From: an uncultured delta proteobacterium
GTDB lineage: Bacteria > Desulfobacterota > Binatia > JACPRU01
Length of the DNA stretch: 64,000 bases
Direction: 5' to 3'
Assembly: GCA_963745025.1 (NCBI GenBank)
Contig: CAVUWD010000013.1
Span: forward strand, 128,001-192,000
Shown here: one piece after another, positions 4,677 to 54,585 of the stretch
How positions within the stretch are numbered: position 1 is the stretch's first letter
Layout: every line of letters starts with the position of its first letter
Position numbers and translations under genes: made by a program
Notes under the pieces: model-generated
Databases searched by the model: none
Told to the model about the DNA's origin: nothing
What the model saw: only the letters and a program-made list of their open reading frames with translations

Positions 4677-4703
4677 AGGCCCGTGTCGATGCGCTCTACC
4701 GAG

Positions 4704-11795: not shown

Positions 11796-11941
11796 TCGCT
11801 CCCGATGGTCGCGATCCCGTCTCCGGTCGAGCATCCTACCGAGTCATGGGCGCGCGTCGCAGATCGCGTCAAATGTCGCTCCCGGTGGTCGCGAGAGCTC
11901 TGCCGTAAGCGCTGCCTCGATCGCTCCCGGTGGTCGCGATC
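11796..11941. repeat. Three REP-like copies (CGCTCCCGNTGGTCGCGA) between aroE and ppdK
   Basis: Copies at about 11796-11816, 11876-11894 and 11919-11941. Confidence 0.85.
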
Positions 11942-11959
11942 CATCTCCGGTCAAGCCTC

Positions 11960-20904: not shown

Positions 20905-20927
20905 GATCGCTCCCGTTGGTCGCGATC
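20905..20927. repeat. REP-like palindrome GATCGCTCCCGTTGGTCGCGATC
   Basis: Same core as the copies near 4611, 11800-11940 and 51964-52052. Confidence 0.85.
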
Positions 20928-21922
20928 GGCTCCGGCCGAGCAGGCAGCCGAGCTAGCCTCTCCGAGATCGGGGAATTCGGATTTCTGGAGCGCCTTCGAA
21001 GGCTGCGTATCCCGCGCCGCGGCGTCGAGCTGGGCATCGGCGACGACTGCGCCGTCGTCCGCGCCGGTCGACGCCGGCTGCTGCTGACGACCGACGCGCT
21101 CGTCGAGAATGTACACTTCCGTTGGGCGTGGGACACGCCGGCAGGGCTTGGCCAGCGTGCCTTCGCGGTCAACGCCAGCGACATCGCCGCGATGGGCGGT
21201 GCACCGCGATTCGCACTGCTGTCGATCGTCGCGCCGAGGACCGCCCGCATTGCCCGTCTCGAAGGGATCGTGCAGGGCTTCGTCGCCGCCGCTCGGGAGA
21301 GCGGCTGCGCGCTGGTGGGCGGGAATCTCAGCGCCGGTTCCCATTGGATGATCTCGGTCACCCTTGTCGGCGAGCCGTTCGGCGCCCCACTGCGGCGCTC
21401 CGGAGCACGAGCGGGGGATCACGTTTACGTGAGCGGTGTTCTCGGAGCCGCGGCGTTCGGCCGGGAAATCCTGCTCCGCCGAAGGCGTGGATCGCCGCGC
21501 CAGACGCTCGCCTTCCGACGGCCTCGAGCGCGTCTCGACGTCGGCGAGATGCTCGCCCGCACGCGGAGCGCGAGCGCCGCCATCGACCTGAGCGACGGCC
21601 TCATTTCAGACCTCGGGCACGTCTGCCGCGCGAGCCGAGTCGGAGCGCTGATCGATCCAGAGAAGCTACCGTTCGCTCCCCCGCTTCTCCGGCTGGCAAA
21701 GGACGAGCGCCTGGCGCTCGCGCTCGGCGGCGGCGAGGACTACGAGCTGCTGTTCACGATTCCGCCCGGACGGGTTCGCCGTCTCGAGGAGTTGGCCCGC
21801 GGGCGATCGCTTGCCGTGACGAACATCGGCCGTGTCACACGCGGGCGAGGGGTCCGGCTCGCGGGCGCGTCGCGCCCTCGTCGGCCGTCTTCGCCGGCGG
21901 GTTCGATCACTTTCGGCGGTGA
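20916..21922 (+). CDS. thiL: Thiamine-monophosphate kinase (apparent 1-nt frameshift near 21863)
   Basis: GEFGFL, GIGDDCA, HF, NASDIAAMG, DLSDGL, GGEDYEL. The conserved C-terminal GFDHF lies in the -1 frame ending TGA 21922. Start uncertain. Confidence 0.88.
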
Positions 21923-50809: not shown

Positions 50810-51559
50810 TCAAGGCCCGGTTGGCGCGAGGCGCTTCGCCGGGCGCACGACGACGAGAAAGCTGTTGCGCGCCGTCGCCCATTCACCGTCGATCGGAATG
50901 TGCAGCTCGCGGCGATCTCCCGGCGCGAAGCCTTCGTCGACTCGCCTGCGGTAAATGCGCAGGGCCTTTGCCTTCTCGGGTCCGAGTACCGTCACCGTGG
51001 CCGAAACCGCCGGGATGTGGAACATCGAGCGGTTCTCGACGACGGCGACCACGCTCGGAGGATGGGCCGCGAAGTCGGTGGAGATCTTCACGACCTCCAG
51101 CGCGTTGGGGTCGAAGCGAAAGGTGTCATAGACCCATGCTTGTGGCCCCGGCGGGAGCGAGATGCTGCGCAGAACGAGGCGGACCTCGTCGACGAGACCC
51201 TCGTCGACCTCGGAGTAGACGGGCGTAATCGCCACGATCTTGCCGTCGAGGTTGACGCCGAGGCGGATCTGCAGACGCCCTTCGAGCACGGAGTAATGGG
51301 TGAGAGAGACGTCGCTTTGTCGGTACGTCTCGTAGGCGGTCAGCACGTCTGGCTCGGCGGCGCGCAAGCCCTCTTCGATCTCGCGAACACGGCTCTCGGG
51401 GAGGGCGTCTCCGTAGATACGGATCTTCCCCGGGACGGCATCGGGAGGCGGCGGCACCGCGAGTGACATCGGTGTTGGCGGTGGGGCCTCGGCGAATCGG
51501 GCGCATGCGCCGAAGAAGACGAGTCCGACCCACCAAGCCCTCCGCAGGGATCGCATCAT
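50810..51559 (-). CDS. Hypothetical lipoprotein (TonB-C/AgmX-like domain plus Ig-like domain)
   Basis: Lipobox FGAC, Pro-rich linker, LEGRLQIRLGVNLDGKIV..., beta-rich C-terminus. Confidence 0.6.
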   Translation of the reverse strand: MMRSLRRAWWVGLVFFGACARFAEAPPPTPMSLAVPPPPDAVPGKIRIYGDALPESRVREIEEGLRAAEPDVLTAYETYRQSDVSLTHYSVLEGRLQIRLGVNLDGKIVAITPVYSEVDEGLVDEVRLVLRSISLPPGPQAWVYDTFRFDPNALEVVKISTDFAAHPPSVVAVVENRSMFHIPAVSATVTVLGPEKAKALRIYRRRVDEGFAPGDRRELHIPIDGEWATARNSFLVVVRPAKRLAPTGP

Positions 51560-51592
51560 CGAGGGACGGGATAGTTCAGCGGGGCGCCGGGG

Positions 51593-51750
51593 TCAAATCG
51601 GCTTCCGTTCGCGATCGAACCAGTCGATGGCGAGCTTCGCCGACTCGTCGAGCCAGGGGGGTAGATCTCGTCGTGCGTGATCGGCAAGCCGACGAGCTTC
51701 TCCGGCTCGCGGGAGCGCTCGTAGAGCCCCCGGTAGCCCTCGAACTTGCA
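51593..51750 (-). pseudogene. C-terminal fragment of an alpha/beta hydrolase
   Basis: FEGYRGLYERSREPEKLVGLPITHDEIY, frameshift, then PWLDESAKLAIDWFDR; no N-terminal part. Confidence 0.5.
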
Positions 51751-51932
51751 GAGTGACCCTGTTCCCGTCCTCCCTAGCGCGACGTCCCCGCAACCCAAAA
51801 CGCGCCATGGTGACGATGCCTCCTATCTACACATGTTCGTCGAAAAACGAGAATTCCTACCGTGGTAGCTCGGATGCCTCCGCGCGCAGCATGCTTGACG
51901 CTACTCCCCGCCGCGACTACGGTCCGCACGCT

Positions 51933-52052
51933 AGCTCGGTAGGCTGCGTCGGTCGGAGATGGTTCGCGACCAACGGGAGCGATCCGTGGCGCAGTCTCCC
52001 AGCTCGGTAGGATACTGGAGCCGAAGGTGGTTCGCGACCGACGGGAGCGATC
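51933..52052. repeat. Two tandem REP-like units (AGCTCGGTAGG...TTCGCGACCNACGGGAGCGATC), reverse orientation
   Basis: Units 68 bp apart; the core is the reverse complement of the 20905 palindrome. Confidence 0.85.
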
Positions 52053-52071
52053 TCTGACAAACCTCATCGCC

Positions 52072-52440
52072 ATGTCGCGCTACCGCTCGCTCGCGATCCT
52101 CGTGCTCGCGCTGATGCTCTCGACGGGCTCCGCCGGCCTCACTTCGCTGGCGCTTCGCTGCGCGCGCTGCGGCCCGCACTGCCCGATGTCGGCGAAGCAC
52201 CTCGGATGCCACGATCGCGACAAGCCTGCGCACACCTGCCACGACCGAGGTGGAGCGCGGCTGACGTCCTGTGTGCACTCGGGCGAGACCGCGCCCGGTC
52301 TCGCCTGGCTGGCGATTCCGACGCCCGGCGCTGAGGCGCGGCCCCTCGTCGCGCTTCGCGAGCACCTGTCTCCGACCGATTCTCGCGGCGGCCGCGACGT
52401 TCCCGAGCCGCCGACCGAGCCACCGCGCCTTCTCGCGTAG
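52072..52440 (+). CDS. Exported Cys/His-rich leader protein with Pro-rich C-terminus (CutF/CruR/CopL-like)
   Basis: Signal peptide; CARCGPHCPM, HLGCH, HTCH, CVH; ends PEPPTEPPRLLA; first gene of the copper operon. Confidence 0.75.
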   Translation: MSRYRSLAILVLALMLSTGSAGLTSLALRCARCGPHCPMSAKHLGCHDRDKPAHTCHDRGGARLTSCVHSGETAPGLAWLAIPTPGAEARPLVALREHLSPTDSRGGRDVPEPPTEPPRLLA

Positions 52441-52495
52441 CCGCCCAATCCACCACTACGAACCCGGGCCGCGGAAGGAGCGGCCCGCGAGGAGG
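52428..52495 (+). promoter_or_regulatory. Predicted SD-sequestering RNA structure (translational attenuator)
   Basis: CCTTCTCGCG (52428-52437) pairs 10/10 (one G-U) with CGCGAGGAGG (52486-52495, containing the SD); nested hairpin GGGCCGC-GGAAGGA-GCGGCCC (52466-52486). Confidence 0.65.
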
Positions 52496-52500
52496 ATCTC

Positions 52501-53385
52501 ATGCGGAAGGCCGTTCTCGGCCCCGCCGCGGCGCTCGTCTTGGGGATTTACGCTCCCCGAGCGGATGCCCACGGCGTGGTCGGACAGAGGACGTTCATCG
52601 AGCCGTTCATCACCGAAGACGTGAACCCGAAGAACGAGTTCGTGATCGCGCGGCCCGAGTGGCACGACTCACGCGAGGGTCACGACCTGAGCGAAGGATT
52701 CAGCCTGGAAAAGAAGCTTGCCGACCGTCTCAGCCTGACGCTCGACTCGGCGTGGATCCACATCGCGCCCGAGGCCTCCGACGAGCCGAGCGAGAGCGGC
52801 TTCGACAACCTCGGGATCACGCTGAAGTATGCATTCTTCGAGAATCCCGATCACGAATCGATCGTGTCATTCGCCGTCGAATCCACGGCCCCGACCGGCG
52901 GCGCGGATGTGGGGGCCGAGGAGTACTGGGCGTTCAAGCCGTTCTTCCTCTATGGTAGAGGATTCGGCGACCTACCCGACTCCCTCCGGTATCTACGGCC
53001 GTTCGCCGTGCAGGGAGACTTCGGGCCCGAGGTGTCGACCGGGCCGGGAACGGCGACGACGTTCGCTCACAACATCTGTCTGGAATACAGCATCCCGTAC
53101 CTCCAAGCTGTGGTCCGGGATCTCGGCATCGGCTGGCCGTTCAACGACATCATCGCCGTCACGGAGTTCAACTTCGAGCACGGAGTCCACGGAGAAGAGG
53201 CCGGCAGGGACGTCATCAGCATGACGCCGGGCATCGTGTACATGGATCGCTACGTGGAGATCGGCTTCGGGGGGCGGGTTCCGCTTAGCGACGGCGCTCG
53301 CGACGACTTCGATTGGGGCCTCATCGGCATCGTCGATCTCTTCATCGACGACCTCTTTCCCTGGTCGCGATGGCAACCGTTTTGA
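52501..53385 (+). CDS. Putative outer-membrane beta-barrel, copper-operon associated
   Basis: Signal peptide ending ADA|HGVVG; amphipathic beta-strand pattern (GFDNLGITLKYAF); C-terminal Phe. Confidence 0.65.
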   Translation: MRKAVLGPAAALVLGIYAPRADAHGVVGQRTFIEPFITEDVNPKNEFVIARPEWHDSREGHDLSEGFSLEKKLADRLSLTLDSAWIHIAPEASDEPSESGFDNLGITLKYAFFENPDHESIVSFAVESTAPTGGADVGAEEYWAFKPFFLYGRGFGDLPDSLRYLRPFAVQGDFGPEVSTGPGTATTFAHNICLEYSIPYLQAVVRDLGIGWPFNDIIAVTEFNFEHGVHGEEAGRDVISMTPGIVYMDRYVEIGFGGRVPLSDGARDDFDWGLIGIVDLFIDDLFPWSRWQPF

Positions 53386-53395
53386 AGGAGTCGCG

Positions 53396-53764
53396 ATGAG
53401 GGCACACCCGCTTCTGATCGGCAGTCTTTACGTTGCGGCACTGCTGTCGCACCCCCGTCCCGGCAACGCTCACGCATTTCTCGATCATGCGGAGCCGAAG
53501 GTGGGCTCGACCGTCCGCTCGCCGCCTGCTTCGGTGATGCTCACGTTCACCGAAGATGTCGAGCCGGCCTTCTCCAAGATCGAAGTCGTCGACGGCCAGG
53601 GAAAGGGACTCGCCATCGGCACTCTCGAGCATCCCGAGGCGCCGACGCTACGGGTATCACTGCCCGCCCTGTCGAGCGGGAAGTACCAGGTGCGGTGGAA
53701 AGTCGTCTCGGAGGACACCCACGAGACGCAAGGGACCTTCGAATTCTCGGTGGAGGCCCCATGA
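53396..53764 (+). CDS. copC: Periplasmic copper-binding protein CopC
   Basis: Signal peptide AHA|HAFLDHAEP-type N-terminal His; YQVRWKVVSEDTHETQG (DxH site); no Met-rich Cu(I) loop. Confidence 0.92.
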   Translation: MRAHPLLIGSLYVAALLSHPRPGNAHAFLDHAEPKVGSTVRSPPASVMLTFTEDVEPAFSKIEVVDGQGKGLAIGTLEHPEAPTLRVSLPALSSGKYQVRWKVVSEDTHETQGTFEFSVEAP

Positions 53765-54585
53765 GCGTCGTCGAGGTCGCGATCGGCTGGGCCGACATCG
53801 CTGCGGCCACGGTTCTGGTGGGCGGATCGGCCTACGCGGCTCTGGTGGAAACGCCGCAAGCCTCGGGACGACGATGCCTCCGCTCAGCGGCGTCGGTTCT
53901 CGCTGCTGCGCTGGTGCTCGAGATCACCGTGAATTCGTTGCGCATGCACCGCCTCTTGGGGATGGGCGGCGCGACGCTCCTCGCGGACGTGCTCGAGATG
54001 AAGTGGACGCGTTGGTGGGCGCTGCGCAGCGTGGCGCTCGCCGCGCTCGCCATCGGCCTCCGTGCCGCTCGTCCGCGCTGGAGCTTGCTCGCGGGGATCG
54101 GCACCGTGTCGCTGCTGGCGCGTAGCCTCCAGGGCCACGCGGGCGCACACGGGATCCTTCCCGCCCTGATCGATTGGGCGCATCTCTCTGCGGCGACCGT
54201 CTGGGTCGGTGGCCTCGTCCAGCTCGCCCTCCTCCCGACCATCCCCCCGGCGGTCGCGTTGCGGGCGAGTAGGATGTTCACGCTGGCGCTTTGCCCGCTG
54301 GTCGCCGGCGGAGTCTATGGATCTCTTCTCCACGTCGCGGCGATAGAGCAGCTGGTCGCCACGCCCTACGGTCGAGTGCTGCTGGCGAAGATCACGCTTG
54401 CCGCCGTGGCGATCACGCTCGGGGCGATGAATCACTACCGCCACGTTCCGTGGTTGGTGCAAGGGAAGGCGGATGCGAGCGGGCTGCTGCGCGCCGTGAG
54501 GGCGGAAGTCGTCGTGCTCGCCGTCGTCTTGTTGCTGAGCGCTCTGCTCGGCAGCCTGCCGATGCCGCACGCGATGGCTCCGTGA
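53761..54585 (+). CDS. copD: Inner-membrane copper transport protein CopD
   Basis: Multi-TM; SLQGHA, WAHLSAATVWVGGL, TPYGRVLLAK, AE; ATGA overlap with copC. Confidence 0.88.
   Translation: MSVVEVAIGWADIAAATVLVGGSAYAALVETPQASGRRCLRSAASVLAAALVLEITVNSLRMHRLLGMGGATLLADVLEMKWTRWWALRSVALAALAIGLRAARPRWSLLAGIGTVSLLARSLQGHAGAHGILPALIDWAHLSAATVWVGGLVQLALLPTIPPAVALRASRMFTLALCPLVAGGVYGSLLHVAAIEQLVATPYGRVLLAKITLAAVAITLGAMNHYRHVPWLVQGKADASGLLRAVRAEVVVLAVVLLLSALLGSLPMPHAMAP

Follow-up and report, generated by a model that had tools for sequence, protein, structure and literature searches.

What is the function of a small, apparently exported protein that is encoded directly in front of a copper-transport operon? 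The question is raised by an open reading frame (ORF) of 122 codons at 52072..52440 (+ strand; ATG at 52072, TAG stop at 52438-52440) in the window analysed here, a stretch of 64,000 nucleotides from contig CAVUWD010000013.1 of an uncultured delta proteobacterium of the Binatia. An earlier, sequence-only reading of this DNA had proposed that the ORF, hereafter the leader, is a copper-sensing ribosome-stalling leader like CutF of Rhodobacter and CruR of Bordetella, with a strand complementary to the Shine-Dalgarno (SD) sequence of the next gene in its last codons. By analogy with these proteins, the leader is most likely their lineage-specific relative in design, and we consider it probable, though by no means assured, that it acts in cis as an exported, metal-sensing pause leader built like CutF and CruR and gates a unit of an outer-membrane channel, CopC and CopD. 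The evidence that carries this view is the gene family itself, the conservation and spacing of its motifs, its synteny and, within one clade, the predicted RNA pairing.

The leader starts with MSRYRSLAILVLALMLSTGSAG, a signal-peptide-like N-terminus. Residues 1-22 (52072..52137, +) form a predicted Sec signal peptide with n-, h- and c-regions, consisting of the basic residues R3 and R5, the hydrophobic core LAILVLALML and the small-residue segment SAG. AlphaFold models a helix at residues 3-19, with a predicted local distance difference test (pLDDT) score of 85-91, and a similar N-terminal hydrophobic segment is found in the displayed rows of the family alignment. The signal peptide is followed by a Cys/His cluster, C30xxC33xxHC37PM, C46H47, C56H57 and C67xH69 (52159..52278, +); its first part is the motif C30-A-R-C33-G-P-H-C37 (CARCGPHC), followed by P-M. 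The cluster is a putative metal-binding site. The C-terminus, PEPPTEPPRLLA, includes two Pro-Pro (PP) pairs, P113-P114 and P117-P118 (of 122 residues), in the family-conserved segment E112-P-P-T-E-P117-P118-R119 (52405..52428, +), a candidate pause or arrest motif. All these elements, including the further CH motifs, had been described by the sequence-only reading and are present. AlphaFold, supplied with 44 sequences, gives no fold beyond the signal helix (predicted template modelling score, pTM, 0.26); this helix is the only confident part, and residues 54-71 fall below a pLDDT of 50. PEP-CTERM and other C-terminal sorting signals were considered for the tail and rejected, because only 3-7 residues follow the PEP-like sequence and a transmembrane segment is absent.

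The leader belongs to a small family, for which three alignments were used: A1 with 15 members, A2 with 44 sequences and the narrower A3, which served for collecting related loci. Below, G000 denotes the locus of this window and L-numbers denote related loci. Homologues are found in 12 of 5.8 billion protein clusters, and a profile search against 1.84 billion representatives yields 51 proteins at E<=1e-3, 8 of them at E<=1e-10, most of which are 115-140 residues long and align over their full length. Sequence identity amounts to 71% in a genome of the same genus and 47% in a genome of the same family. Among 401 sampled genomes of the phylum the family profile matches in the leader's own genome only; four weak matches (E 0.005-0.01) in genomes of relatives were discarded as noise, as they contain stop codons. 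The record titles of genomic copies read, for example, Candidatus Binatia or "Deltaproteobacteria bacterium" metagenome-assembled genome (MAG), and a search of NCBIfam with the 44 members of A2 found no relevant family. Judged by its homologues, the leader is a real gene of a distinct family that is not covered by Pfam and occurs mostly in Binatia-type soil and sediment MAGs. The family was not found in the published literature searched; the supplementary cluster lists of PMC9973294 may hold members.

In the 44-sequence alignment the mean column identity is 31%, and only C33, C37, M39, C67, P117 and P118 are invariant, while C30, P38, C46, H47 and P113 are conserved in at least 90% of the sequences. 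The family consensus comprises a signal peptide, CxxCxPxCPMHA, LGCH, CH, CxH, AVLP, a variable linker and EPPT[D/E]PPR with a few terminal residues; the tail and the Cys motif are thereby the best-conserved parts of a fast-evolving protein. Conservation of the PP..PPR tail, which had been suggested as a check, is borne out. The tail has the general form [D/E]PPR plus 3-7 residues. In 44 of 57 PP-bearing family proteins the last PP is followed by R, and 4-7 residues come after this PP in 52 of the 57; it is preceded by D in 21 and E in 16 (D/E in 37 of 57), and by R in 3. Equally regular is the distance from C37 to the last PP, which measures 77-89 residues (median 81) in 51 of 52 proteins with the Cys motif, the 52nd (distance -3) being a truncated or fused oddity. 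The linker between the Cys motif and the PP is hypervariable in sequence and constant in length. Across 17 loci all four Pro codons are used for P117 and three for P118, and R119 is encoded by CGC (10), AGA (6) or AGG (1); this variation points to selection on the peptide and not on the RNA. The overall pattern of conservation resembles that typical of arrest leaders.

The rare Arg codons AGA and AGG after the last PP occur in 7 of the 17 loci (L026, L027, L029, L033, L035, L036 and L037), and in the barrel genes of these loci AGR accounts for 7 of 96 Arg codons. Because the loci that carry them are related, AGA/AGG at this position may represent a single inherited change. The rare codon could add to pausing, or could serve an AGAGCGC/GCGCUC pairing beside the start codon, which is found in L026 and L033 and in a G.U-containing version in L037.

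The conserved ligands also allow a different reading, in which the leader serves the barrel-CopC-CopD system as a stable, copper-binding protein of the periplasm, either a subunit or a chaperone, its Pro-rich tail is a protein contact or stability element, and the RNA structures discussed below are ordinary traits of a GC-rich intergenic region (IGR). The set C30, C33, C37, M39, C46, H47 and C67 indeed exceeds the single CxxC of CruR or CxxxC of CutF, transport genes always accompany the leader gene, codon content accounts for the RNA pairing, and a proline-rich interaction region was weighed in the discussion of the first CutF paper (PMC8456105). The predicted structure, however, is limited to the signal helix, and a hypervariable linker of constant length is hard to explain for a folded domain, whereas it is expected of a ruler that spans ribosomal tunnel and translocon. 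Moreover, the PP motif always lies 3-7 residues from the stop codon. Together with the neighbourhood of the gene, to which we now turn, these features make a subunit or chaperone role unlikely.

The leader lies directly 5' of a gene for an outer-membrane beta-barrel, followed by copC and, where the contig reaches far enough, copD, in G000, L002, L003, L023 and L026-L029. In every locus with a readable neighbourhood the barrel gene comes directly after the leader. The leader-barrel IGR is 60 nt long here and 46-65 nt in 16 loci. The 12-stranded barrel (52501..53385, +; 294 residues) is FapF/COG4313 (Phenol_MetA_deg)-like: its AlphaFold model is all-beta (pLDDT 75.7, pTM 0.71), and Foldseek ranks FapF (E 3e-8) and the COG4313 channel 4RL8 (E 1e-6) highest. 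PF13557 (Phenol_MetA_deg) matches weakly, below its cut-off, in 6 of 13 barrel homologues, and a search of PDB sequences with the barrel profile gave no matches. CopC (53396..53764, +; PF04234, E 1.6e-23) and CopD (53761..54585, +; PF05425, E 4.8e-15) complete the operon that had been named in the sequence-only reading. The longest copD frame opens at GTG 53695; its probable start, ATG 53761, overlaps the copC stop codon as ATGA, and the same 4-nt overlap is present in L029 (copD ORF from 4677, copC end at 4680). A convergent permease gene closes the unit downstream.

The mature barrel is predicted to start at His24, immediately behind the signal peptide, the junction being ADA|HG here and AHA|HG or A|HAHG in relatives; most relatives begin with HAHG. 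This His is followed by a very conserved segment of 30 residues that includes the near-invariant HGVVGQRSFIEPF[VI]TEDVNPKNEF, as seen when the N-termini of the barrels of the window, L003, L023, L027, L029 and L031-L037 are compared. The segment may be a copper-binding plug of a FapF/COG4313-type channel.

When related loci were collected from the barrel side (16 loci, 11 inspected), a leader of the A2 family was again found 5' of the barrel in L031, L033 (frameshifted), L035, L036 and L037; L030 duplicates the locus G006, and L041 lies too near a contig end to be judged. Three barrel loci have a different small ORF in this place, with a hydrophobic N-terminus, Cys/His residues and, near the stop, a PP(P) tail: L040 1949-2350 in a Methylomirabilota MAG (tail FRPPPLFRV*), and L043 1986-2336 (tail LLPPPVPIG*) and L044 1933-2373 (tail EPPLVPPPKR...) in other MAGs. 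In hhalign comparisons with the leader family the probability is 84.6% for L044, which is related, and 0.4% and 2.1% for L040 and L043, which have no detectable homology to it. Upstream of these barrels the position and design of the leader are thus kept while its sequence has been replaced, and the occurrence of non-homologous PP(P)-tail leaders before homologous barrels argues for a positional, cis-acting role rather than that of a subunit. In L045, a barrel of 30% identity has an ammonium-transporter-like gene upstream in place of the leader.

Three further details of these loci were noted. The PPP codons of L040, CCCCCUCCUCUC, are complementary to the downstream segment GAGGAGGA. In the genome of the same genus (G001), the barrel gene is split across three reading frames (L002 1925-2825), and in L033 the leader is split across two (2029-2436); the split frames in L002 and L033 are either MAG assembly errors or genuine frameshifts.

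How closely does this design follow known copper-responsive leaders? CutF of Rhodobacter capsulatus, encoded in cutFOG, is described as an exported protein of 118 residues with the motif C69xxxC73 and the tail P109EPEGPPPRL118, and copper-induced synthesis of CutO as dependent on the Cys and Pro motifs, on the signal peptide and on a stem-loop in the IGR by which the cutO SD is hidden (PMC9973294; bioRxiv 10.1101/2025.02.05.636593); the requirement for the tail motif is also stated in PMC8456105 (with bioRxiv 10.1101/2025.02.05.636593). As CutF-like proteins are poorly conserved, they were collected by rules, reported as fewer than 150 residues, a signal peptide, a PP among the final 15 residues and a gene that follows downstream in the same orientation (PMC9973294). 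The leader has 122 residues, a predicted signal peptide with n-, h- and c-regions and a modelled helix, PP within its last 15 residues and the barrel gene on the same strand 60 nt further on. Like CutF, as far as CutF is known from its published description, it is the first gene of a copper operon, is predicted to be unstructured or unstable, lacks a Pfam match, carries a Cys motif about 45-50 residues before a C-terminal Pro motif plus R-L (PPPRL in CutF, PPRLLA here), and precedes a short IGR where RNA structure, predicted in the present case, hides the SD of the next gene. Unlike CutF, it comes from a family of Binatia-type MAGs and has CxxCxxxCPMH plus three more C/H pairs instead of a single CxxxC, PP-x-x-PP-R instead of a PPP tail, and a barrel, CopC and CopD instead of a multicopper oxidase downstream; the stem-loop of cutFOG is purely intergenic, whereas the SD is here predicted to pair with the final codons of the leader itself and thereby to close a junction. 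The "non-RAPP" tail, which the sequence-only reading had regarded as a peculiarity, is no departure from the kind, because EPPRLLA resembles the PPPRL of CutF, whose C-terminus reads P109-EPEGPPPRL-118 (bioRxiv 10.1101/2025.02.05.636593).

CruR (Bp2923) of Bordetella pertussis, a DUF2946 (PF11162) protein, is reported to contain CxxC and a RAPP motif three residues from its C-terminus at a conserved spacing, to be unstructured, and to act through Rho-dependent termination, copper relieving the arrest, with a cruR-bfrG IGR of 162 nt (PMC9426467). It shares with the leader a small ORF, exported in CruR and predicted to be so here, with CxxC (C30xxC33 here), a Pro motif three residues from the C-terminus, the conserved Cys-Pro motif spacing, a prediction of poor structure, a C-rich region after the ORF and a position at the head of copper-acquisition operons with CopC among the neighbours; CopC and CopD are reported as neighbours of both CutF-like and DUF2946 genes (PMC8456105, PMC9426467). 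It differs in having RAPP, of which the R-A before PP is absent here, instead of [D/E]PPR, and in its longer IGR (162 versus 60 nt). SecM, VemP and MifM resemble the proposed design in being exported nascent chains whose C-terminal arrest unmasks the next SD and whose release is force-sensitive, but they are described as monitors of the export machinery and not of metal, without a Cys/His cluster and with unrelated arrest motifs (bioRxiv 10.1101/2025.02.05.636593). The summary of CutF and CruR in the sequence-only reading is essentially right in view of PMC9973294 and PMC9426467, and the CutF/CruR-type anatomy that it assigned to the leader is strongly backed by the conserved motifs, the constant spacing and the synteny with barrel, CopC and CopD.

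If the leader acts on the genes behind it, the junction between leader and barrel is the place to look for the output. The strand CCUUCUCGCG, formed by codons R119-A122 (52428..52437, +), is the anti-SD strand, and the SD strand CGCGAGGAGG lies at 52486..52495 (+), its SD core at 52490-52495 being 5 nt before ATG 52501. Between CCTTCTCGCG (52428-52437) and CGCGAGGAGG (52486-52495) ten base pairs can form, including one G.U wobble; the 10-nt complementarity claimed earlier thus holds as a pairing and fails as a perfect complement. Folding of 52400-52520 gives these ten pairs probabilities of 0.94-1.0, and the SD is fully paired when no ribosome is present. The GC hairpin CGGGCCGC-GGAAGGA-GCGGCCCG (52465..52487, +) is nested just 5' of the SD, as the sequence-only reading had stated; it reads GGGCCGC-GGAAGGA-GCGGCCC at 52466-52486 (8 bp as 52465-52487) and has base 52486 in common with the helix. 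A second hairpin, 52436-52440 with 52456-52460, has only 5 bp here and competes with the anti-SD helix. The folding energy of 52400-52520 is ordinary (z = -1.39; 20 of 200 shuffles are as stable), and 1 of 164 other windows of 21 nt from the downstream gene pairs as well with the SD region as the tail does.

A ribosome paused at P117-P118 would cover approximately 52408-52435, including the anti-SD strand, which makes unmasking of the SD geometrically coherent at this locus. Masking of 52415-52445 had been expected to free the SD; the pairing of the SD does drop, from 1.0 to 0.27-0.76, and the cost of opening the ribosome-binding site (RBS) falls by 3-5 kcal/mol, the release being only partial. 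In detail, the cost decreases from 16.8 kcal/mol to 13.7 with the pause mask, which represents a ribosome with P117 in the P site, or to 12.1 with a ribosome at the stop codon. The latter value also suits a simpler arrangement, in which a small gene without any sensing role is coupled constitutively to the barrel because any terminating ribosome opens the tail:RBS helix, the hairpins serving mRNA stability. A ribosome at the stop reduces the RBS cost by no less than the pause mask does, not only in G000 (12.1 versus 13.7 kcal/mol) but also in L022 (6.6 versus 10.7 kcal/mol), and the helix is what the codons predict. Such coupling, however, leaves unexplained the invariant PP, the R that follows it, the constant spacing to the Cys cluster and the conserved Cys and His residues, and we consider it very improbable. 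Unmasking of the SD through covered tail codons is our tentative choice for the output of a pausing leader.

Across the family the picture is mixed. Within the close clade G000, L002, L021 and L022 the tail-SD helix dominates the predicted folds and persists through sequence changes that wobble pairing tolerates, and to this extent the claim of an anti-SD in the last codons holds; family-wide the pairing does not rise above the expectation from recoding, and it varies in its exact form. When the stretch between the R119 codon and the AUG is folded, 13 of 16 loci have five or more pairs that link tail codons to the 20 nt ahead of the start. These closing tail:RBS pairs enclose a junction with two hairpins: the 5' arm of the first lies within the last codons or immediately behind them, and the second, a GC hairpin, is directly before the SD. 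The first, at the last codons and stop, has its 3' arm around a conserved ACGA motif in at least 12 of 16 loci, with arms that differ by clade (CGUAGU/ACUACG, CGCUUCGU/ACGAAGCG, CCUUCGU/ACGAAGG, CGUCGGU/ACCGACG, UGAUCGU/ACGAUCA and GGCUGUC/GACAGCC). The second is drawn in the folds of 16 loci, appears as a GC stem of 5-10 bp in IGR-only folds of 11 of 11 loci, and shows compensatory changes in 2 of 6 pairs in one RNAalifold run and in 2 of 4 in another. The duplex of the real tail far surpasses those of ordinary coding windows, of which 0-11 in about 163 are as good in 9 of 11 loci, and cognate tail/RBS pairs are more stable than swaps among ten clades, the mean duplex being equally stable in 948 of 20000 permutations. 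From these folds tail:SD pairing is physically likely, and the host may make use of it.

Several results weigh against the proposed leader, its RNA output above all. A tail of Pro, Arg, Leu and Ala is inherently complementary to GGAGG in a GC-rich genome, so that the pairing is not independent evidence of a switch. Under synonymous recoding with local codon usage the closing helix is expected in 10.8 +/- 1.6 loci, compared with the observed 13 of 16, and tail:RBS pairs are absent in three of the 16 (L029, L035 and L036). At G000, 48 of 500 synonymous recodings of the tail pair equally well, and in the other ten loci 21 to 400 of 500 match the tail duplex energy. The RNAalifold consensus retains the pre-SD hairpin only and does not include the anti-SD/SD helix, whose covariation had been suggested as a check. 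With the pause mask the RBS becomes cheaper to open by 0.2-6.4 kcal/mol in 9 of 11 loci (3.1 in G000) and costlier in the remaining two, L002 and L028. Ensemble folds with 60 nt of upstream ORF contain essentially no tail-SD pairing in 5 of 11 loci, and with 90 nt upstream L002 and L021 shift to other C/U-rich partners in the ORF; as constrained ensemble folds depend heavily on the segment chosen, no verdict is drawn from them. Tail:SD pairing is therefore no evidence of RNA-level selection and follows largely from the codons.

On the protein side, the leader matches no Pfam family at E<=0.1, PF11162 (threshold 23.7 bits) included, and PF11162 is likewise unmatched by the 15 members of A1 (E<=10), by 43 distant relatives (E<=0.01) and by 7 further leaders (E<=1). 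DUF2946 was not found above its cut-off in 5 related genomes and 301 genomes of the phylum, and a six-frame scan of the leader's own genome gave two unrelated sub-threshold matches only. The likeness to CutF and CruR is accordingly one of design, not demonstrated homology. The 2021 search for CutF-like proteins is described as having dropped sequences that match Pfam, DUF2946 being named there only as the closest hidden Markov model (PMC8456105). The neighbours in a protein language model comprise DUF6769 and DUF6660, a cluster in which 25% of the members are DUF2946, and CzcI, with scores of 0.93-0.94; the DUF2946/CzcI neighbours share only 99-112 of 256 features, and this is a lead only. In addition, the proline motif of CutF on its own is reported not to have arrested a LepB reporter (PMC9973294), from which it follows that a PP tail is no guarantee of stalling. 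Finally, an SD of the leader itself is not recognisable when the sequence is read, and among the 20 runs listed for the locus no RNA run was found, all being DNA metagenomes that hold at most 0.31 of the sampled words.

The same type of leader could also have a transcriptional output. The stop codon is followed by a C-rich, G-poor tract (52441..52465, +; 14 C and 2 G in 25 nt), a candidate Rho-loading site or unstructured spacer; 25-nt windows with C>=13 and G<=2 make up 0.02% of the 64-kb window. This stretch keeps a CruR-like Rho mechanism in play. A paused ribosome would then shield a Rho-loading tract that extends from the tail codons into the IGR, the GC hairpin would be a pause site for RNA polymerase, and upon release of the ribosome Rho would terminate transcription before the barrel, the tail:SD pairing being incidental. 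Over 60 nt around the stop, 16 of 16 loci have more C than G, and for 10 of 16 this excess ranks in the top 5% of local windows; RNAalifold preserves no RNA element other than the pre-SD hairpin; the recoding controls bear no sign of selection for the anti-SD helix; and CruR, according to its description, works through Rho (PMC9426467). Yet the IGR measures 46-65 nt compared with the 162 nt of cruR-bfrG, the tract is short for a Rho utilization (rut) site and owes part of its C excess to proline codons, and the SD is strongly sequestered in the close clade. On balance, we think it unlikely that Rho provides the output.

Returning to the pause leader that acts on translation, its export, copper binding and pausing and the coupling among them are modelled by analogy on CutF and CruR, and the sequence of events might be as follows. 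The operon mRNA would start near a conserved TTGACG-17-TACGGT block, and the leader would be translated, its signal peptide directing the nascent chain to Sec. Peptide-bond formation would slow down at [D/E]-P117-P118-R119, three residues before the stop here, by which time the Cys/His cluster (residues 30-69, at a fixed distance of about 80 residues upstream) would have emerged on the periplasmic side. Copper binding at the cluster would alter the length of the pause. A ribosome paused on PP would cover about 15 nt downstream, corresponding to codons R119-A122, which would otherwise pair with the barrel SD region and close a three-way junction with two hairpins. The pause would expose the RBS of the barrel-CopC-CopD operon, and upon release the helix would form again. 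Since the operon resembles an uptake route (channel, CopC and CopD), there is the slightest of leanings towards the CruR-like sign, with copper cutting the pause short and reducing expression.

A bolder interpretation, which we think improbable, is that the leader represents an independent, convergent copper-sensing arrest leader of Binatia and their neighbours, with a pause of three elements, that gates a copper import route through three compartments. The three elements may be the [D/E]PPR peptide, an mRNA hairpin, which may sit at the ribosome entry channel because its 5' arm begins 1-17 nt past the Arg codon, and, in half of the clades, the rare AGA/AGG Arg codon. The route, so far unrecognised, may consist of a FapF/COG4313-type outer-membrane channel with a mature N-terminal His, CopC and CopD.

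Upstream of the leader, the promoter-like block TTGACG, 17 nt, TACGGT (51895..51923, +) is conserved in close relatives: the pattern GCTTGACGCT.CT.CC..CCGCGACTACGGT.CGCA is near-invariant in four of four, while the flanks are divergent. A strict sigma-70 scan called no promoter, as the -10 hexamer matches in 3 of 6 positions only, and no terminator was found in the IGR; the block is a putative promoter. Between this block and the start codon, in the 5' untranslated region (UTR) of the leader, lie two tandem copies (51933..52071, +) of a dispersed repeat of about 68 nt that was identified by genome BLAST and a pattern search. Its core, GGTTCGCGACC.ACGGGAGCGATC, has at least 40 copies in the genome (40 of 124 candidates were scored), and the pattern matches 4 times in the 64-kb window, where 0 matches are expected; matches are located also at 11919-11942 and 20905-20928 on the minus strand. 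At the leader site the number of copies is 0 in L002, 1 in L021 and L022, and 2 in this genome. The repeat is not specific to the copper locus; it looks like an element of the repetitive extragenic palindrome (REP) or miniature inverted-repeat transposable element (MITE) type that alters the length of the copper operon's UTR. For 51933-52071, a tandem riboswitch or operator was considered and rejected in view of the genome-wide dispersal, the varying copy number and an unremarkable fold (z = +0.71), and an Rfam search of 51000-53000 found no known riboswitch or leader, returning only a chance match to a small nucleolar RNA (E 0.32).

Copper-sensing leaders that couple export, metal binding and ribosome pausing have previously been studied in two Proteobacteria only. 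New here is a compact and well-delimited family from an uncultured soil lineage, with a different metal motif and tail, that is tied to a defined three-gene copper-transport unit. As a caution for similar cases, pairing between the codons of a Pro-rich tail and a GGAGG SD is to be expected from codon content in GC-rich genomes and does not by itself indicate an evolved switch. Thanks to its very sharp pattern of a few Cys and His residues, a variable linker of constant length and PPR, the family lends itself to a clean test of how the distance from sensor to arrest motif works. Should the leader prove to be convergent, its repeated exchange for non-homologous ORFs with PP tails would imply that such leaders arise easily de novo.

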